Shown one piece after another: positions 6,408 to 35,190 of a stretch of DNA of 64,000 nucleotides. The notes under the pieces are model-generated. The model did not search any database. It saw only the letters and a list, made by a program, of their open reading frames with translations, and was not told the DNA's origin. The stretch's first letter is position 1. Every line of letters begins with the position of its first letter. The translations under genes and the position numbers were made by a program. This DNA is from Gammaproteobacteria bacterium (GTDB taxonomy: Bacteria; Pseudomonadota; Gammaproteobacteria; Natronospirales; JAJUFS01), in NCBI GenBank assembly GCA_029263725.1, contig JAJUFS010000001.1:19439-83438 (forward strand), given 5' to 3'.

Positions 6408-6781
6408 TGCAGACACCCATGAAGCGAGTACGCGGCCTCGGTTCCGCGAAGTCGGGCACCGAGCATTTCTGGATGCAGCGCCTCACCGCGCTCGCGCTGA
6501 TCCCGCTGGGCCTGTGGTTCGTGTACTCCATCGTCACGCTCGCGGGCGCCGATCACGACAGCGTGGTCGCCTGGATGCGCCATCCCGTGCGCGCCACGCT
6601 GCTGGCGCTGTTCGCCGCCACGGCCTTCTACCACTCCAAGCTCGGCTTGCAGGTGGTGTTCGAGGACTACGTGCACACCGGGTGGCTGAAGTTCACCGCG
6701 CTCATCCTCAACAACTTCATCCATGTTCTGCTCGGCGCGGCTGCTGTGATCAGCGTGCTGCGCGTCGCCTTCGGGGATTGA
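6407..6781 (+). CDS. sdhD: succinate dehydrogenase hydrophobic membrane anchor subunit
   Basis: ATGA overlap with the sdhC stop. Translation [23 protein letters not shown]..., position within the operon. Confidence 0.88.
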
Positions 6782-6785
6782 TTCA

Positions 6786-8591
6786 ATGACCAACGCCATC
6801 AAGGATTACAACGTCGTCGACCACACCTATGACGTGATCGTGGTCGGCGCCGGCGGCGCCGGCCTGCGCGCGACCGTCGGCCTCGTGGAGCTGGGCTTCA
6901 AGACCGCGAACATCACCAAGGTCTTCCCGACGCGCTCGCACACCGTCGCGGCCCAGGGCGGCATTTCCGCCTCGCTCGGCAACATGGGCGAGGACGACTG
7001 GCGCTGGCACATGTACGACACCGTCAAGGGTTCCGACTGGCTCGGCGACCAGGACGCGATCGAGTACATGTGCAAGGAAGCGCCGCAGGCGGTGATCGAG
7101 CTCGAGCATTACGGCATGCCGTTCTCGCGCACCGAGGATGGCCGGATCTACCAGCGCCCCTTCGGCGGCATGACCACGCATTTCGGCAAGGGCACCGCGC
7201 AGCGCACCTGCGCCGCGGCTGACCGCACCGGCCACGCCATGCTGCACACGCTGTACCAGCAGGCGCTGAAGCACCAGGCGGAATTCTTCATCGAGTACTT
7301 CGCGCTCGATCTCATCATGGAAGACGGCGCCTGCCGTGGCGTGATCGCCTGGAACCTGGCGGATGGCACGATCCATCGCTTCCGCGCGCAGATGGTGATC
7401 CTTGCTACCGGCGGTTACGGCCGCGCCTATTTCTCCTGCACCTCCGCGCACACCTGCACCGGCGACGGCAATGCCATGGTGCTGCGTGCCGGCCTGCCGC
7501 TGCAGGACATGGAATTCGTGCAGTTCCACCCGACCGGCATCTACGGCTCGGGCTGCCTCATCACCGAGGGCGTGCGCGGCGAGGGCGGTTACCTGACCAA
7601 CTCCGAGGGCGAGCGCTTCATGGAGCGCTACGCGCCGAACGCCAAGGATCTTGCCTCGCGCGACGTGGTGTCGCGTTCGATGACCATCGAGATCCGCGAA
7701 GGCCGCGGCGTCGGTCCGGAGAAGGACCACATCTATCTCAACCTCATGCATCTCGGCCCCGAGGTGATCAACAAGCGCCTGCCGGGCATCGCCGAGACCG
7801 CGAAGATCTTCGCCGGCGTGGACGTGACGAAGCAGCCCATCCCGGTGATCCCGACGGTTCACTACAACATGGGCGGCATCCCGGCGCTGTACACCGGCGA
7901 GGTGGTGACGCTGAAGGACGGCAACCCGAACACGGTCGTGCCGGGCCTGATGGCGGTGGGCGAGGCAGCCTGCGTGTCCGTGCATGGCGCGAACCGTCTC
8001 GGTTCCAACTCGCTGCTGGACCTGGTGGTCTTCGGCCGCGCCGCGGCCAGGCGCTGCGGGGAGATTCTCACGCCGGGCGCGCGCCAGAAGCCGCTGCCGG
8101 AGAACGCCGGCGAGGCGACCTTCCAGCGCCTTACCCGGCTGCGCGAAACCGCCTCCAACACCTCGGGCCGCCCGACGGCGGAAATCCGCCTCGAGATGCA
8201 GCGGACCATGCAGAACCATGCCGCGGTGTTCCGCACCGGCGAGGTCATGGAGGAAGGTCTCGAGAAGCTCAAGGAAACCTTCAAGTCCTTCCGGCAGGTG
8301 CGCGTCTCCGACCGCAGCATGATCTGGAACTCCGATCTGGTCGAAACCCTTGAGCTCGAGAACCTGCTCGGTCAGGCGATGGTGACGCTCAATTCCGCCA
8401 TCAATCGCAAGGAGTCCCGCGGCGCGCACGCCCGCGAGGATTATCCGGAGCGCGACGACCAGAACTGGATGAAGCACACGCTGGCGTGGATTGGCCCGGA
8501 AGGCGAGGTCAGCCTCGATTACCGGCCGGTGCACCTGCGCACGCTGACCGACGAAGTGGAAGTGGTGCAGCCGCAGAAGCGCACTTACTGA
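6786..8591 (+). CDS. sdhA: succinate dehydrogenase flavoprotein subunit
   Basis: [16 protein letters not shown] fold, [13 protein letters not shown] (covalent FAD His), [18 protein letters not shown]. Confidence 0.96.
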
Positions 8592-8668
8592 TCACCGCGC
8601 CGGAACGTCGACGCACCAGTTGAACGAGTTGATTTTTTCCGGGCGCGGCCCGCGAAGAGGAAAACAGC

Positions 8669-28194: not shown

Positions 28195-28971
28195 TCAGGC
28201 TGGCGCCGCCATGCCTTCGATGATGAGTTCCTCGCGGTGCGCCGCGCGCAGGCGGTGCAGCAGCTTGTCCGCGGCATGGAACATGCCGTTGAGGTCGCGC
28301 GGGGCGGGCGAGGCGGTGACCGCGCCGATGCGCGCGTGCACGCGCCGCGCGTCCAGCGCGAGGCGGACCTTCTCCAGGGCCACGTGCGCCGCCGCCTGGC
28401 CGGTCTCGGGCAGAAGGATCGCGAATTCGCCGGCTTCCAGCCGTCCCGCCACATCGCTGATGCGCAGGCTGTCGGCGAGCACTTCGGCGACCTGGCGACA
28501 TTGACCGTCCTGGTCGGCGTCGAGGGTGAGATAGGCCAGCGTGACCGGCTCGCCATTGCGATGGCAGACCGCCAGCACCGAGCCGGCGCGCTCGAAGAAG
28601 CCGTGGCGGCTCGCCAGCCCGGTTTCCTCGTCGACCGCGGCGAGTTCGTGGGCGGTTTCGCGGTTCACGTGCAGCCAGCGCGCCAGCAGGGTGACCACCA
28701 CGAACAGCGCGCCCTGCAGCAGCAGGTTGGTCAGCCAGCTGGCCGGCTCGAAGTAGGGACTGCCGGCCTCCAGCGAGACCATGGCCCACAGGCCGGCGGC
28801 GAGCACCGCGGCGATGATCGCGGTGGTGCGCTCCAGGTACCAGCCCGCGAAGATCAGCGGCACGAAGTACAGCGGCCCGGCGTACATGGCGAAGCGGCCG
28901 TAGTGGTCGATGGCGGCCGCGGCCAGGATGCCCGCGAACACCAGCAGCATGATCAGGAAGCGGTTGTTCAT
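28195..28971 (-). CDS. membrane GGDEF-domain protein with a degenerate active site (EAGEF) and a retained RxxD I-site
   Basis: About four N-terminal TM helices. DEETGLASRHGFF matches D.LTGL.NRR.F. RISDVAGRLEAGEFAILLP aligns with RxxD-x5-GGDEF. The FK.iND..GH..GD segment is shortened to LDADQDGQ. Confidence 0.8.
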   Translation of the reverse strand: MNNRFLIMLLVFAGILAAAAIDHYGRFAMYAGPLYFVPLIFAGWYLERTTAIIAAVLAAGLWAMVSLEAGSPYFEPASWLTNLLLQGALFVVVTLLARWLHVNRETAHELAAVDEETGLASRHGFFERAGSVLAVCHRNGEPVTLAYLTLDADQDGQCRQVAEVLADSLRISDVAGRLEAGEFAILLPETGQAAAHVALEKVRLALDARRVHARIGAVTASPAPRDLNGMFHAADKLLHRLRAAHREELIIEGMAAPA

Positions 28972-28977
28972 GAATGT

Positions 28978-29026
28978 CCTCCCCGCACCGTTCCGGTTTC
29001 CGGAAACGGTATTACACGCGGGGAGG
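28978..29026 (-). promoter_or_regulatory. hairpin sequestering the Shine-Dalgarno of the GGDEF gene
   Basis: Minus-strand RNA reads CCUCCCCGC-(31 nt containing the palindrome GTTTCCGGAAAC)-GCGGGGAGG-acauuc-AUG. The GGAGG lies in the 3' arm. Confidence 0.45.
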
Positions 29027-29070
29027 ACGGGCTGTGCGGATGATTGCGTAGGGGATGCAACCGAGTCCGC

Positions 29071-29400
29071 TCACATGGCGATGCAGGCGGTCCAGAGCTC
29101 GTCGGTGAACAGCAGGCGCGTCGTGCCGCAGATGCGGACGTGGTTCATGGTGCAGGCATCGCCGTCCTCGTCGACGATCTTGACGTCGTAGTTGCCGCAG
29201 GGAATGTTCTGCAGCGTCAGCTTGCTGCTGCTTTCCAGCGTGTCGTCGGCGAGCTGGTCGTCGCCCCACTCCGAGTCGGAGGTGGACGAGACGTAGAGGT
29301 ACCAGAAGTCCCAGCTGCTGCCGTTGTGAATGACGAGGTCGGCGGCATGGGCGGTGAGCGGCAGCATGCCCGCAGCCAGCAGGATGATCAGGCGTTTCAT
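29071..29400 (-). CDS. small secreted four-cysteine protein (109 aa), unknown function
   Basis: Signal peptide MKRLIILLAAGMLPLTAHA. The mature part has four Cys (CGNYDVKIVDEDGDAC, RICG, TAC). G/C-rich third-position codon usage matches neighbouring genes. Confidence 0.6.
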   Translation of the reverse strand: MKRLIILLAAGMLPLTAHAADLVIHNGSSWDFWYLYVSSTSDSEWGDDQLADDTLESSSKLTLQNIPCGNYDVKIVDEDGDACTMNHVRICGTTRLLFTDELWTACIAM

Positions 29401-29567
29401 GTAAGTCCCCCCGGTGAAGATGGCCGGGAAGCGCCCGGCCGCAACGATACGAAGCTTTGCCGATGGGGAAGGGGCTGGCAAGCGTTCGGGCGGCAAACGG
29501 CGTGGAACGGCGAGTTTTTGGGGTGGCGCGTTTCACAAGCGGCATCGGCCCCCACGCAGACCGGGGC

Positions 29568-29592
29568 AAAAAAACCCCGCCTTTCGGCGGGG
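29568..29592 (-). terminator. intrinsic terminator after the lipoprotein gene
   Basis: Minus strand reads CCCCGCC-gaaa-GGCGGGG followed by UUUUUUU. It lies 54 nt after the stop at 29646. Confidence 0.8.
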
Positions 29593-29645
29593 CAAGCTCC
29601 ACTCGCGATGGAGACTGGCAGGAGGTTGTTGTTGTCCGGCGTGCC

Positions 29646-31139
29646 TTACAGGGCCGGCACGGTGTCTGCGGGCAGTTCGATCATGTAGGTGTCGACGTTG
29701 TCGTCGTTGCCCGAGTTCCAGTTCGAGTTGAACAGCACCTTGGTGAAGTCGCGGTTCACCGCCGCGTGCGGCTCGGAGAAGTAGTCGCCGCCCTTGTTGT
29801 AGGTGTGCGCCAGGTTGAGGATGCGCGGGTTCGGCTTCAGTTCCACCGCCATCACCTTGTTGGCGTACCAGCCGCTGCCGGCAACTTTCTCCTTGTAGGT
29901 CGAGATCAGCACCCAGCCCGGCTTGTAGAAGTTGCGCGCCGAGAGATGCATGGCGGTGGAGTTGCCGCCGGTGTAGATCTGCCACAGGTTGGTGGACTGG
30001 CCGTTGGCGAGGTCCCACATCCGCACCCAGCCGGAGTCGTAGTCGCCGGCGATCACCACGTCGCGGCCGTCGGCGTCCAGGCCCAGGTCGGAGTGCGGGC
30101 TCTTCGGCGCAAGACCGATGGCGAAGTTGAAGTCGCGCGAGAAGGACATCATGCCGCAGGGCTTGCTGCGCGTGCCGAGCGAGCCGCCCGAGCAGGCCGG
30201 CGAGCTCCAGGAGGGCACCACGTACTCGCCCGTCGCGCTGATGCTGATGTGATCCGGCGCCGGCACGCCGCCGCCGTCCTTCGCGAAGTCATACACGCCG
30301 GCGATCTCGTCCTTGAGCATGTCGTAGGAAATCATGCCAAGGCCCTTGTTGTTCGAATCCAGCACCACCAGGCCCCACCAGCGCGCGTCCATGGACGGCG
30401 AGCCTTCGGTCTTGGTCGAGACCTTGGCGGCGGACGGCCAGATCTGCTTGATGCTGGTGGCATCATGCCCCGCGATCTTCTGCACGCGGGTGAAGTCGGT
30501 CACCACGTTCTTCTCGCCGGTGGCGACGTTGTACTCGGTGATGGTCATGCCGCCGCCGTTCGGGATCACGTACATGACGTCCGGGTGCGTCGGATGCCAC
30601 TGCGGTTCGACGCCGGCGCCGTTGAGGTCGAGCTTCTTGATGAGCTTCAGCGTCTGGGTGTCGTACAGGTACCAGGACTGGCCGCGCGAATAGACGATGA
30701 AGCGCGAGTCGTCCGCGTTGAACGGCTGGCGGCGCGCATAGTCGTTGCGCGCGAAGCCGGACAGGCCTTCGGCGTCGGCATCGGTGGCGCGCACGATGCA
30801 GGAGCCGTAGACCGGATCGTTGTAGGGCTTGCCCTTGGCGGGCTTGGCGAAGCCGGAAAGCGGCTTGCTCGCATCCTGGCCTTCGACCAGCGCGAAGCTG
30901 CCGCTGTAGGTCGCGGCACAGGGGCCGGACTTGAAGCTGATGGCTTCGAGGCCGTCATCCGAACCCGGATCGGTCGTGGTCGGCGGCGCGCTGTCCGCGG
31001 GCACTTCGACCGCCGGGGGCGGGTTCGCGCCGGAAGGCGCGGTGTCCGGGGCGCTACCGCCGCCACCGCCACCGCCGCCGCAGCCGGCAATGAGAAGGCC
31101 AAGAGGGAGGATCATCTTTGCGAGGTTGGAGTTCCACAT
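29646..31139 (-). CDS. beta-propeller-like lipoprotein of unknown function, downstream of tandem c-di-GMP riboswitches
   Basis: AGGUGA lies 7 nt before the ATG at 31139. Lipobox LLIAGC is followed by Gly8 and a Pro/Ala/Thr-rich linker. The remaining roughly 400 aa is W/Y/G-rich and resembles TolB/DPP-IV-like propeller repeats. Confidence 0.75.
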   Translation of the reverse strand: MWNSNLAKMILPLGLLIAGCGGGGGGGGSAPDTAPSGANPPPAVEVPADSAPPTTTDPGSDDGLEAISFKSGPCAATYSGSFALVEGQDASKPLSGFAKPAKGKPYNDPVYGSCIVRATDADAEGLSGFARNDYARRQPFNADDSRFIVYSRGQSWYLYDTQTLKLIKKLDLNGAGVEPQWHPTHPDVMYVIPNGGGMTITEYNVATGEKNVVTDFTRVQKIAGHDATSIKQIWPSAAKVSTKTEGSPSMDARWWGLVVLDSNNKGLGMISYDMLKDEIAGVYDFAKDGGGVPAPDHISISATGEYVVPSWSSPACSGGSLGTRSKPCGMMSFSRDFNFAIGLAPKSPHSDLGLDADGRDVVIAGDYDSGWVRMWDLANGQSTNLWQIYTGGNSTAMHLSARNFYKPGWVLISTYKEKVAGSGWYANKVMAVELKPNPRILNLAHTYNKGGDYFSEPHAAVNRDFTKVLFNSNWNSGNDDNVDTYMIELPADTVPAL

Positions 31140-31257
31140 TGTCTGATCACCTGAATCTCGTTTGCGAGTGGAACCGGCCCGCAGCGCCCGAAGGCGGGGT
31201 TCAGGGATCGATCAGGAACGCGGAGATCGTTGCTGGCCGCTGCCATGGCTGGCGGCG

Positions 31258-31329
31258 GGCAACCCCGCTGTCCTGGGCAATGCCCTTCGGACCGGTGGCT
31301 TTGCGTCCCCGCCTCTCGACGGGTTTGCC
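31258..31329 (-). promoter_or_regulatory. c-di-GMP-I (GEMM-I) riboswitch aptamer, gene-proximal copy
   Basis: Minus-strand RNA is GGCAAACCCGUCGAGAGGCGGGGACGCAAAGCCACCGGUCCGAAGGGCAUUGCCCAGGACAGCGGGGUUGCC. It matches the Vc2-type core GGCAAACC..(GNRA hairpin)..GACGCAAAGCC.CCGG...AGCGGGGUU.CC. Confidence 0.85.
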
Positions 31330-31436
31330 TTTTCGCGACTGGCGCGCACACGAATGCCGCGCCGGGCGCACGCTTCCTTGCGTGTTCTCTTGACCGGCGC
31401 GGTGAGTGACAGGTGAAGGTCTGACCGGCTTGGCCG

Positions 31437-31499
31437 GGCAACCCCGCTGTCCGCTTCCGGACCGGTGGCTTTGCGTCCCCGCCTCTCGACGGGTTTGCC
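31437..31499 (-). promoter_or_regulatory. c-di-GMP-I (GEMM-I) riboswitch aptamer, distal copy
   Basis: Minus-strand RNA is GGCAAACCCGUCGAGAGGCGGGGACGCAAAGCCACCGGUCCGGAAGCGGACAGCGGGGUUGCC. A 40-nt stretch is identical to the proximal copy; only the P2 tip differs. Confidence 0.85.
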
Positions 31500-31639
31500 T
31501 TTGCTGCCTGTCGCGTCCTGCGAGCGGTGCGTCCCTTGCTTCAGACGGGGGCGATCTTAGGGATCGGGGGGAGGGTCAACGGTGACGGGGGTCACGTTTC
31601 GGGCCGAGCCAGGCTGGAAAAATCCTTTAATAACAATAA

Positions 31640-31669
31640 GTTATGAAGATTACCCTCAGAACGTGAGGG
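31640..31669 (-). terminator. candidate terminator after the GT4 fusion gene, within an AT-rich spacer
   Basis: Minus strand reads CCCUCA-cguuc-UGAGGG followed by an A/U-rich run (uaaucuucauaacuuauuguuauuaaaggauuuuu). This is the only AT-rich patch in the locus and may also hold the riboswitch leader promoter. Confidence 0.4.
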
Positions 31670-31705
31670 GATTTCCCTCAGCGTACCGTAGGGCGCCGGC
31701 GACAG

Positions 31706-33949
31706 TCAGGCGGAAGCGCCCATCGCGCGGCGGGCGCGCTTGGCCAGCAGGTGGGCGTAGATGGCGAGTACCGACTCGGTGAAGCGGTCGATGGAGTGAT
31801 TGCGGGCGAAAGCGACGGCCGCCTCGGACATCTCCCGGCGCAGCGGCTCGCATTCCAGCAGCTCGCGCACCCGGCGGCACCAGGCGCGGCGATCCTCGGC
31901 GGTCTTGAAACCGGTGACGCCGTCGCGGATGACGTCGTCGATGCCGCTGGAGCGCACGGCGATGCAGGGCAGGCCCGCCGCCATGGCCTCGAGCAGCACC
32001 ATGCCCTGGGTTTCGGTCTTGGAGGCGAACAGGAACAAGTCGCCAAGGTGGTAATAGCGCGGGATCACCTCCGGCTTCACCGCGCCGGCGAGGATGATCA
32101 CCTCGGCAAGCCCAAGGTCGCCGATGCGCGCCTCGATGCGCCTGCGCTCCGGTCCGTCGCCGATGATCACGAAGCGGAATGGCTGGTGCAGCTCGCGTTT
32201 CAGCAGCGCGACCGCCTCCAGCAGGAAATCCAGGTTCTTCTCGCGGCTGAGGCGCGACACGGTGACCAGCACGCGCTCCTCGCCGATGCCGAGCTTGCCT
32301 TTCAGCGCCGCGACTGCTCCGGCGTCGACGCGGTTGAAGCGCTCGAACTCGATGCCGGTGGGCAGCACGAAGATGTCGGTCTTCACGCCGATCAGGCGCA
32401 GGTATTCCTCCGCGGAGTAGGTCGGCACGATCACGCCGTCGCACTTGTTGGAGAAGCGTCTCACCAGGTAGTGCGAGATCAGGTTGCGGAACAGCGGCCC
32501 CGGGATGCTTCTGACGAAATGCGCGTAGTGCTCAAGGCGCGTGTGATAGGTGTAGACCGCCGGCACGCCGAGGCGCCGCGCCCACAACAGTCCGAGGGAG
32601 CCGCACCAGATCGGGTGGTGGCAGTGGATGATGTCGGGGCGGAAGTCGCGGATGGCGCGGTGGACGCGCGGATGAAAGATGTTGGCGAGGCGGAACTCGC
32701 GCTTCTCGCCCCAGATGAACAGCGGCGGCAGGCGGCAGCTGCCATCGCGAGGCGCATCGCCGCGGTCGCGGCGGCGGTAGTCGGGCGCGACAACCAGCGT
32801 CTCGCGGCCCGCGGCGTCAAGGCCGCGGCGCAGGCGGTCGATGGAAATCGGCACGCCGCCGATGAACGGCAGGTAGTTGTTGGCGAACATCGCCACGCGT
32901 CGCACCTCGTCGAGCCAGGGCGCGCCGTCGACGTCGAAGCTCGGGTAATAGTCGCGGTCGGTGAAGATCAGCACGTACAGCTTGATGGCGATCAGCGTGA
33001 AGATGCTGACGATGAGCAGGAAGTTCAGGTAGCCGACGTAGAACAGCGAGTGGATGAACAGCCACAGGCCCTCCAGCGTGCGGAACACCGGATGCTGGCC
33101 GATGTCCAGCGGCTGGGCGGCGATGTCCACCCGCGCGCCGTCCACGCTGACCTTCACGTAGTGATAGAAGCTGTCGTCGTCGTTCATCACCAGGCCGCCG
33201 GCGCCGCCGGTGGTGACGTACTCCGTGCCGCCTTCGCTGTGGCGGGCGAACACCGGCAGGTTGGCGGAGAACACCGCGCGCACGCCATGGCGCGAAAACA
33301 GTTGAACGAGCCGTTCGCGCACTTCCTCGAAGGCGAAGTGATCCTCCGGCGAGGCGAACCAGTTGTCGCTGCCGCTTTCGAACAGCGGATGGCTCATGAA
33401 TACGAAGGCGTGCCGCTCGGTGCGTTCGCGCAGCTGTTCCTCCAGCCAGTGCAGCTGCCAGTCGAACGAGGTCTCGCCGGTGCTGTCGAGGAAGATGAAG
33501 CGGCTGTTGCCGGCGGTGAAGCTGAAGAAGTAGGGGCCGAAGCGGTCGTAATAGCGGAACGCGCCGAAGTTGCTCGCCTCGCGCGGCCCGAAGGTGAGCA
33601 GGCAGGGCACATCGAGATACCCGAGCGAGCCGCTCAGCGCGCGGTACTTGTCCTCGCCGCCGCCGCTCACCGCGTTGCCGGCTGACACCACGAAGTCCAC
33701 GCCGGAGGCGTTCAGCATCGGCAGTATCTTGCGCTCGAAGATGCCGATGGAATTGTTGATGTTGCCGACCACCGCGAAGCTGAACCGCTCCTTGCCCTCG
33801 AGCGAGGCCTCGATCTCGCGGATGGCGCGCGGGTGCATGGTCTCGTAGTCGCCGGCGAAGAAATTCAGATAGACCTTGTAGCCGACCAGCAGCAGCACGA
33901 TGGCCACGTTCAGCCAGAAGACGAGCTTGAGCCTCGCGCGCGCCGCCAT
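31706..33949 (-). CDS. fusion protein: N-terminal TM, degenerate metallophosphoesterase-like domain, TM segment, GT4-family glycosyltransferase
   Basis: C-terminal half has GT4 features (ANNYLPFIGGV, EX7E as ETQGMVLLEAMAAGLPCIA). N-terminal half has the calcineurin-like layout with motifs substituted: GNINN for DxH, AGNAV for GD, GPRE for GNHE. Confidence 0.8.
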   Translation of the reverse strand: MAARARLKLVFWLNVAIVLLLVGYKVYLNFFAGDYETMHPRAIREIEASLEGKERFSFAVVGNINNSIGIFERKILPMLNASGVDFVVSAGNAVSGGGEDKYRALSGSLGYLDVPCLLTFGPREASNFGAFRYYDRFGPYFFSFTAGNSRFIFLDSTGETSFDWQLHWLEEQLRERTERHAFVFMSHPLFESGSDNWFASPEDHFAFEEVRERLVQLFSRHGVRAVFSANLPVFARHSEGGTEYVTTGGAGGLVMNDDDSFYHYVKVSVDGARVDIAAQPLDIGQHPVFRTLEGLWLFIHSLFYVGYLNFLLIVSIFTLIAIKLYVLIFTDRDYYPSFDVDGAPWLDEVRRVAMFANNYLPFIGGVPISIDRLRRGLDAAGRETLVVAPDYRRRDRGDAPRDGSCRLPPLFIWGEKREFRLANIFHPRVHRAIRDFRPDIIHCHHPIWCGSLGLLWARRLGVPAVYTYHTRLEHYAHFVRSIPGPLFRNLISHYLVRRFSNKCDGVIVPTYSAEEYLRLIGVKTDIFVLPTGIEFERFNRVDAGAVAALKGKLGIGEERVLVTVSRLSREKNLDFLLEAVALLKRELHQPFRFVIIGDGPERRRIEARIGDLGLAEVIILAGAVKPEVIPRYYHLGDLFLFASKTETQGMVLLEAMAAGLPCIAVRSSGIDDVIRDGVTGFKTAEDRRAWCRRVRELLECEPLRREMSEAAVAFARNHSIDRFTESVLAIYAHLLAKRARRAMGASA

Positions 33950-35113: not shown

Positions 35114-35190
35114 GCCCTCGTAGCTCAGCTGGATAGAGCGTCCCCCTCCTAAGGGGAAGGTCGCAGGTTCGACTCCTGCCGAGGGCGCCA
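35114..35190 (+). tRNA. tRNA-Arg (anticodon CCT)
   Basis: Cloverleaf folded by hand: acceptor GCCCTCG/CGAGGGC, D arm GCTC/GAGC, anticodon stem TCCCC/GGGGA with loop CTCCTAA, T arm GCAGG-TTCGACT-CCTGC, encoded CCA. Confidence 0.93.

Follow-up and report, generated by a model that had tools for sequence, protein, structure and literature searches.

On the minus strand of the window (the whole 64-kb stretch analysed here, from contig JAJUFS010000001.1 of a gammaproteobacterial assembly), the 5′ leader of a gene for a 497-amino acid (aa) lipoprotein carries two complete tandem aptamers of the GEMM-I type, that is, class I riboswitch aptamers for cyclic di-guanosine monophosphate (c-di-GMP-I). Between the second aptamer and the gene lies a strand that is complementary both to that aptamer and to the ribosome-binding site (RBS), and the leader lacks intrinsic terminators. 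Our modelling points to this leader of a monocistronic messenger RNA (mRNA) as a two-sensor device through which c-di-GMP would shut off translation, a reading that we hold to be moderately probable.

When the whole window was scanned with the Rfam covariance models at their gathering thresholds, the only matches were two tRNAs and two riboswitch aptamers, both of full length. Aptamer 1, distal to the gene, occupies positions 31433–31508 (61.6 bits, E = 4e-12), and aptamer 2, the gene-proximal copy, positions 31254–31338 (68.6 bits, E = 4e-14); both lie on the minus strand, and both matches to family RF03167 span model positions 1–80 of 80. A lineage-specific covariance model of our own (R1) scored them at 85.6 and 96.5 bits, respectively. 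The ligand-contacting pocket nucleotides G20, A47 and C92 of the Vibrio cholerae Vc2 aptamer and the nucleotides of its inter-helix Watson-Crick pair C44-G83 (roles as given in PMC4744006) are present in aptamer 1 (G20 = 31499, C44 = 31475, A47 = 31472, G83 = 31447, C92 = 31438) and in aptamer 2 (G20 = 31329, C44 = 31305, A47 = 31302, G83 = 31268, C92 = 31259), and they are invariant across the aptamers of the lineage. A preliminary description of this DNA had proposed two tandem minus-strand GEMM-I aptamers, and with both copies passing a curated model of clan CL00126 and carrying the Vc2 contacts this proposal is upheld; taken on its own, the identification of both copies as complete GEMM-I-type aptamers is one in which we have very high confidence.

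The same description had placed a GNRA-capped hairpin in each copy, which we locate as GAGA tetraloops at 31487–31484 (aptamer 1) and 31317–31314 (aptamer 2), and had located the difference between the copies at the tip of helix P2, where the sequence indeed has a GAAG loop in aptamer 1 and a GGGC-AUU-GCCC mini-helix in aptamer 2. Its two identical blocks are real, but a repeat finder gives their lengths as 45 nucleotides (nt) (31288–31332 = 31458–31502, spacing 170) and 18 nt (31256–31273 = 31435–31452, spacing 179) rather than 40 and 16 nt. The distance between the starts of the copies is 170 nt (31508 versus 31338) and not 179 nt as had been stated; the latter spacing is restricted to the 3′ blocks because the P2 tip of aptamer 2 is 9 nt longer. 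Aligned over their full length, the copies agree in 71 of 87 columns. With filters switched off, the R1 model found no third aptamer in 31000–31800. A possible degenerate copy at 31549–31528, flagged by the repeat finder as a 73% copy of the first-arm sequence, scored below 0 bits with R1 under the same settings and is not counted as an aptamer, a conserved 5′ hairpin being the likelier reading.

For both copies, the best-scoring Rfam family was RF03167 (c-di-GMP-I-GGC, threshold 59 bits), as it was for most relatives, and this ranking speaks against canonical c-di-GMP-I aptamers and for the alternative that these RNAs are specificity variants, either c-di-GMP-I-GGC with an altered ligand or the GEMM-Ib type that binds cyclic AMP-GMP (c-AMP-GMP). 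A second family of the same clan (CL00126) also exceeded its own gathering score at both sites and was suppressed by clan competition; RF01051 is by far the likeliest identity of these suppressed matches, because sister aptamers in relatives (L009:3920–4001 and L011:1148–1231; L-numbers denote relatives' loci) match RF01051 best, at 63.9 and 63.4 bits (threshold 35), which itself argues against variant specificity. In the RF03167 alignment, both copies have GACGCAAA where the consensus is GACGCGAA, and this mismatch, blank in the match line, is the only disagreement at a conserved nucleotide. Counted on the Vc2 sequence, the mismatching column is the equivalent of A47, the nucleotide that in Vc2 stacks between the two guanines of the ligand (PMC4744006). 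RF03167 has a conserved G at this position, whereas an A is found in both copies, in the nine lineage aptamers collected first and in all 16 distinct lineage aptamers. The GGC variant reportedly goes back to Weinberg et al. in 2017, and the middle letter of its name is said to be the G at the A47 equivalent. The c-AMP-GMP alternative fares no better: the G/A choice at position 20 is the determinant, A being typical of c-AMP-GMP variants (PMC9481103), and both copies have G there (31499 and 31329), so they are not of the c-AMP-GMP type. Given this evidence, we regard a specificity variant of either kind as highly improbable.

Each of the 16 distinct lineage aptamers forms every one of the 19 modelled pairs, and the first arm shows two compensatory changes as well as several exchanges between G-C and G-U. 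The second arm is an 11-bp helix without a visible asymmetric, receptor-like internal loop, and the tetraloop varies among GNRA types in relatives (GAGA, GCAA, GUGA, GAAA, GCGA and GUAA), which appears more in line with a generic helical receptor, or with none. We conclude that the copies are compact canonical c-di-GMP-I aptamers and not pocket variants, and that the GGC model captures them because the short architecture is common to both. Since the pocket is the canonical G20/A47/C92, c-di-GMP is most likely the ligand. In practice, automated pipelines that assign ligand specificity should be wary of the RF03167 'GGC' model, since it can attract compact canonical aptamers.

To place the tandem in its lineage, we compared the leaders of close homologues (56–65% protein identity). 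All seven leaders with enough upstream sequence carry two or three aptamers: two in the window, L007 and L090, three in L006 and L009, and at least two in L088 and L091. Aptamer 2 is orthologous to the last aptamer of L006, L007, L008 and L009. Homologues at or below about 54% identity in metagenomes had no aptamer upstream, and a scan of a genome collection with the protein returned only four distant homologues (34–38% identity), none with a riboswitch; the association with the riboswitch is thus confined to a close clade. As the aptamer is almost invariant within the lineage, the near-identity of the two window copies largely reflects purifying selection on the core. The window copies nevertheless agree at variable first-arm positions (GUC-GAGA-GGC), where copies within L006 and within L007 differ, and this pattern suggests that some gene conversion or recent duplication may have occurred in the window genome. 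The further alternative, a duplication of non-functional DNA with no more than a resemblance to the motif, can be considered effectively refuted: it has the high GC content and near-identity of the copies in its favour and nothing beyond, and it is opposed by E values of 1e-12 to 1e-14 against a curated structural model, by the retention of all modelled pairs, and by the conservation of position and copy number before orthologous genes in at least seven independent metagenomic lineages.

The gene downstream of the tandem (29646–31139, minus strand) encodes a protein whose translation shows a lipobox (LIAGC) and a Gly-rich tether. Aptamer 2 ends 115 nt before its ATG (31139), and the Shine-Dalgarno (SD) sequence AGGUGA (31147–31152, minus strand) lies 7 nt 5′ of the start codon. 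About 50 nt after the stop codon is a textbook intrinsic terminator (29566–29593, minus strand; GCCCCGCC-GAAA-GGCGGGG followed by a T run, with an 8-bp GC stem), from which it follows that the riboswitch-lipoprotein unit is monocistronic and that this organism does use canonical terminators. In the leader itself, we found no terminator-like site on the minus strand between 30800 and 32000, in agreement with the earlier remark that a U-tract terminator is lacking, and no terminator is conserved in the orthologous leaders. Intrinsic terminators as expression platforms were accordingly set aside, with none on the coding strand. The only terminator-like element in any linker, at L006 4455–4480, consists of a 5-bp stem and U7, with a flanking A-tract that could extend the stem; this lone candidate is weak and not conserved.

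Downstream of the last aptamer, the leaders share a conserved order of elements: a variable hairpin, CCGGUAAGCAACAAGCGCGUUCCUGA, CCCUGA, a second variable hairpin, CUGCGGRCCGGUUCCACUCGCAG (the conserved form of GCGGGCCGGUUCCAC, 31168–31182, minus strand), GAGAnnCAGGUGA and the ATG. Within this region lies what we call the switching strand (31200–31240, minus strand, GCGG..GCAAC..UCCGC..UCCUG..CCCUGAA), for which the leader offers two complementary partners, the 3′ half of aptamer 2 (31286–31255) and the SD with the AUG (31155–31133). Further downstream, CGGGCCGGU (31181–31173) is complementary to ACCGGUCCG (31296–31288), the 5′ strand of P2. An unconstrained fold of the window sequence pairs 31296–31288 with 31181–31173 and joins 31286–31255 to 31240–31203 in a run of helices. 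The consensus fold of five orthologues computed with RNAalifold likewise predicts two ligand-free helices (a-a′ and b-b′), in which the P2 5′ strand pairs with GGRCCGGU and the aptamer 3′ half CAGGACAGCGGGGUUGCCCGG pairs with CCGG..GCAAC..CGC..UCCUG; pair 48-184 of this fold is U-A in three sequences and U-G in two. When the aptamer is enforced in the window fold, CCUGAA (31205–31200) pairs with UUCAGG (31155–31150), CUGAUCG (31215–31209) with UGAUCAG (31149–31143), and UCCGCGUU (31224–31217) with AAUGUGGA (31140–31133), and these helices jointly cover the SD and the start codon.

Duplex energies support both partnerships of the switching strand. In the window, they amount to −27.5 kcal/mol with the aptamer half (shuffles, −19.3) and −27.9 kcal/mol with the RBS (shuffles, −15.4). 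Across six orthologues, pairing energies range from −22 to −28 kcal/mol for the strand with the aptamer half, a level reached by no more than 6 of 300 shuffles, and from −20 to −30 kcal/mol for the strand with the RBS, reached by 0–21 of 300. The conserved GCGUUCC in the strand is the exact complement of codons 2–4 (GGAACGC). The ligand-free fold is favoured by only 0–9 kcal/mol, so ligand binding could plausibly flip the fold. Enforcing the aptamer never raises the predicted probability of an unpaired SD in the eight leaders tested; it leaves it unchanged or lowers it, for example from 0.33 to 0.02 in the window, from 0.61 to 0.19 in L009 and from 0.59 to 0.23 in L090. Taken together, these results on the switching strand favour a model in which three strands exchange partners and translation is switched OFF.

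The hexamer GGUUCC, the complement of codons 2–3 (GGAAC), occurs three times in each of the L006, L007, L009, L088, L090 and L091 leaders: one copy immediately precedes the last aptamer (AACGGUUCC), one lies within the switching strand (GCGUUCC) and one within CCGGUUCCAC. The first of these is missing from the window. A GUUCCAC/GUGGAAC stem that would enclose the RBS is found in most orthologues; it is broken in L006 and its 3′ strand is constrained by Trp-Asn codons, and it was not relied on.

In the mechanism we propose, control would be exerted at translation initiation. Without ligand, the 3′ half of aptamer 2 (31286–31255) would pair with the switching strand (31240–31203) and the P2 5′ strand (31296–31288) with CGGGCCGGU (31181–31173), which would leave the SD and AUG comparatively open. 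Upon binding of c-di-GMP, aptamer 2 would fold and free the switching strand, which in turn would pair with UUCAGG-UGAUCAG-AAUGUGGA (31155–31133) and mask the SD and the start codon. Aptamer 1 may gate a second, distal anti-SD (UCACCUG, 31416–31410) in like manner, and two sensors of one ligand acting on one RBS would be expected to give a steeper or more sensitive shut-off.

The polarity of this scheme, in which c-di-GMP turns the gene off, is a call that our models favour only slightly over an even one. Several points count against it. The polarity derives from minimum-free-energy and partition-function models of segments of 200–260 nt, and such folding tools are blind to kinetic (co-transcriptional) control and to Rho-dependent termination. 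In L008 and L088, SD accessibility barely changes; the platform helices show little covariation (the sequences are few and most pairs are invariant); and when full leaders are folded at equilibrium with every combination of aptamers enforced, SD accessibility is noisy and non-monotonic (for example in the window and L007). These full-leader folds are interpretable only as to which anti-SD partners the SD takes, and a spurious GGCAAACC in L009 corrupted some combinations. The ambiguity of the whole-leader folds is one reason to consider that the same aptamers and ligand might have another output, such as an ON switch, Rho-dependent termination or an effect on mRNA stability. Both polarities are known for such aptamers, Vc1 being ON (PMC4744006) and Vc2 OFF (bioRxiv 10.1101/617340), and the freed C-rich, G-poor strand (AAGCAACAAGCGCGUUCCUGA...CCCUGA) could equally load Rho upon aptamer folding. 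We nevertheless judge another output to be quite unlikely, given that the strong complementarity of the switching strand to the SD and start codon is conserved across six orthologues, and that anti-SDs in the paralogues and linkers co-vary with their own SDs, which a pure Rho or stability mechanism does not require. Rho action following translational shut-off would be compatible with the model we prefer and would not exclude it.

The paralogues in question are proteins with an N-terminal Ig-like Big_5 domain, encoded in relatives, each behind one aptamer of the same type (L006 8–90 with 248–2071; L007 6599–6680 with 6773–8605; L009 3921–4002; L011 1149–1232). The SD is not the same in these single-aptamer leaders, and for two of the four a clear matching anti-SD occupies the same position (CCCUGGUA/UACCAGG and UUCUCCC/GGGAGAA). 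The window has no Big_5 paralogue and no extra aptamer.

How aptamer 1 might take part is suggested by the linkers that follow the upstream aptamers. Directly after aptamer 1 lies the motif GCCGGUCAG (31421–31429, minus strand), which is able to pair with the aptamer tail CCCGGC (hairpin CCGGC-CAA-GCCGG) and is kept after every upstream aptamer in the lineage, with GCCGGTCA as an invariant block in alignment A5. The preliminary description had noted UCACCU in the linker as a complement of the SD; we find it as UCACCUG at 31410–31416 (minus strand), the complement of CAGGUGA (31153–31147). In seven of seven linkers, an exact complement of the leader's own SD context, 7–10 nt long, is located 9–36 nt after CCGGTCAG. 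Expressed as the share of linker shuffles that match as well, these anti-SDs have fractions of 0.029 (58/2000) for UCACCUG in the window, 0.020 for CCUGAAUC in L006, 0.0005 for UCACCUGUUC in L007, 0.0055 for GUCACCUUC in L009, 0.0045 for UCACCUGU in L088, 0.055 for UGUCACC in L090 and 0.033 for CCUGUCUC in L091. The nucleotides just 5′ of the SD core vary by lineage (UUC, AAC, GAC, UAC and UGA), and the own SD context is the best or tied-best match in L006, L007, L009 and L091, but not in the window or L088. We relied on these exact-complement and swap tests instead of duplex energies of the whole linker with the RBS, which are dominated by long internal loops and uninformative. CUGUC, which adjoins the anti-SD in the window and lies within most linker anti-SDs, is the complement of the aptamer's invariant GACAG, so this SD-like segment of the aptamer could hold the anti-SD in the ligand-free state.

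Linker length ranges from 95 nt, in the window, to 267 nt; the linker sequence is poorly conserved except for the CCGGTCAG motif, and a leader has two or three aptamer copies. Such long and variable linkers argue for independent folding units rather than a glycine-type dual aptamer, and the cooperative control that had been suggested for the tandem is not borne out by them. Comparison of the leaders suggests, with moderate strength and most weakly in the window, that both sensors may converge on one SD. A more specific version of this idea, which we regard as possible though somewhat unlikely, is a terminator-free convergent tandem of two to three aptamers that would serve as an 'OR gate for repression' on a single SD: each aptamer would hide its own anti-SD against an internal SD-like segment (CAGGACAG / GACAG, in the P2 3′ strand), and ligand on any one aptamer would free an anti-SD that would reach over about 260–380 nt to occlude the SD.

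A simpler alternative is that only aptamer 2 works, with aptamer 1 as an independent or accessory copy (a ligand sponge, a folding insulator or a recent duplicate) and UCACCUG as a chance match. The window match is only 7 nt long, is equalled in 58 of 2000 shuffles, and fits the SD context of L090 and L091 better than its own, all of which weighs against a role for aptamer 1; the short window linker is without much of the relatives' linker content, and the whole-linker duplex energies are non-significant in three of four leaders. On the other hand, upstream aptamers with intact pockets are retained in seven of seven lineages examined, an anti-SD is present in seven of seven linkers at a similar offset from the conserved motif, and four variants of the SD context are matched by their own linkers (L006 CCUGAAUC, L007 CCUGUUC, L009 CACCUUC, L091 CCUGUCUC). 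On balance, we consider it unlikely that aptamer 2 acts alone, and hold the proposed gating role of aptamer 1 tentatively, at somewhat less than even probability.

Upstream of the tandem, a conserved region (31554–31642, minus strand) comprises an AT-rich AACTTATTGTTATTAAAGG (31642–31624), AAACGTGA and CCCTAAGAT, the last with a −10-like TAAGAT at 31559–31554. Near-identical AACTTATTGTTATTAAAGG/AAACGTGA/CCCTAAGAT elements precede the first aptamer in L006, L007, L009 and L090. A scan of this region with the sigma-70 consensus gave no match, and the spacing to any TTGACA-like hexamer is too short. We infer that the element is a putative promoter; it may alternatively be a regulator binding site or a promoter for an alternative sigma factor.

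The 497-aa lipoprotein has no match to Pfam, NCBIfam or PDB sequence profiles, and its more than 425 homologues are unnamed and mostly from uncultured Gammaproteobacteria. An AlphaFold (AF2) model shows a seven-bladed beta-propeller (predicted local distance difference test score, pLDDT, 78). The top Foldseek match is oligogalacturonate lyase (3c5m, 11% identity) and the rest are generic WD40 proteins; the likeness to the lyase is a hint at most and appears too weak for a functional assignment. Directly upstream of the riboswitch in the window, also on the minus strand, is a pair of glycolipid genes, one for an LPG_synthase_TM protein (35013–33952) and one for a fusion of a Metallophos-like domain with a GT4 glycosyltransferase (33949–31706); at L088/L089, this pair is found immediately after the lipoprotein gene instead (L088 2161–4889). 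The conservation of these neighbours in spite of rearrangement suggests that the lipoprotein is functionally linked to the synthesis of glycolipids or surface glycans. A tRNA gene with anticodon CCU, read as tRNA-Arg, is found in the window (35114–35187, plus strand), L007 (4138–4211), L009 (883–956) and L090 (about 1–75). In L007, L009 and L090, it stands upstream of the riboswitch-lipoprotein unit in divergent orientation; in the window, the two glycolipid genes are inserted between it and the riboswitch. L007 also has a match to sRNA-Xcc1 (RF02221; 9243–9329, 58.4 bits), a family described in Xanthomonas, which may hint at the affinities of the lineage.

On the other side of the lipoprotein gene, about 600 nt past its terminator, an open reading frame (ORF) of 258 aa (28195–28971, minus strand) encodes a GGDEF diguanylate cyclase domain (Pfam E = 2.8e-11), and a candidate gene for making c-di-GMP thus adjoins the leader that senses it. 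A 196-aa ORF from the mechanical ORF list (29012–29602, minus strand) has no family match, overlaps the strong terminator at 29593–29574 and, at least with the start listed, is unlikely to be a genuine gene. The riboswitch would bring an unnamed surface lipoprotein family, with a beta-propeller at its core, into the c-di-GMP regulon of an uncultured lineage of Gammaproteobacteria, and the adjoining conserved glycolipid/glycosyltransferase pair suggests that c-di-GMP governs a function of the cell surface or matrix.

Among known systems, one of the closest is Vc2 of V. cholerae, which lies upstream of tfoY. The aptamers share with it the three-helix GEMM-I architecture with GGCAAACC, a GNRA-capped hairpin, GACGCAAAGCC and AGCGGGGUU.CC, the same G20/A47/C92 contacts and C44-G83 pair, and the setting of a gammaproteobacterial 5′ untranslated region (UTR). 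They differ in number and arm length: Vc2 has one aptamer and its P2/P3 arm is long, whereas here two or three copies per leader have an 11-bp arm with a small tip; in crystal structures, the long arm of Vc2 carries the tetraloop receptor. Vc2 has been reported as an OFF switch (bioRxiv 10.1101/617340; PMC4744006), the polarity that we slightly favour here. With RF03167, the copies have in common the compact architecture and the conserved 5′ AAAGGCAAACC, but not the G of that family at the equivalent of Vc2 A47, where both copies and all relatives have A. The tandem glycine riboswitch is similar in that two like aptamers appear to feed one output, here one RBS, but it has a short conserved linker and docking between its aptamers, in contrast to the poorly conserved linkers of 95–267 nt in these leaders.

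Most tandem riboswitches that have been tested are from Firmicutes and use terminators. The c-di-GMP-I class is well represented in tandem: 347 doublets and 12 triplets have been catalogued, more than for any other class (Sherlock et al. 2022, PMC9481103), with multiple expression platforms, one per unit (PMC9481103), and only a few riboswitch families, those for c-di-GMP included, show significant enrichment in tandem arrangements (PMC12452182). The triple tandem Bc3-Bc5 of Bacillus thuringiensis gives a more stringent, digital response (PMC4759541). As in Bc3-Bc5 and the catalogued tandems, several complete aptamers for the same ligand stand in one 5′ UTR here, and a digital response would be expected; the differences are that no unit has a terminator and that occlusion of the SD is predicted instead, for the upstream unit over about 260 nt. 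Set beside the arrangement of one platform per aptamer, the window has two complete aptamers and no intrinsic terminator of their own; a switching or anti-SD strand is predicted for each, with support that is strong for the proximal aptamer and that, for the distal one, comes from the comparison of seven leaders and is weak in the window. The window element is thus an addition to the known tandem c-di-GMP-I kind, and would depart from tested tandems in its lack of terminators, in the predicted long-range upstream anti-SD, and in a compact aptamer that is mis-attracted to the GGC model. If the convergent anti-SD model is true, these leaders would provide a worked natural example of tandem riboswitches that act at the translational level in high-GC Gram-negative bacteria.

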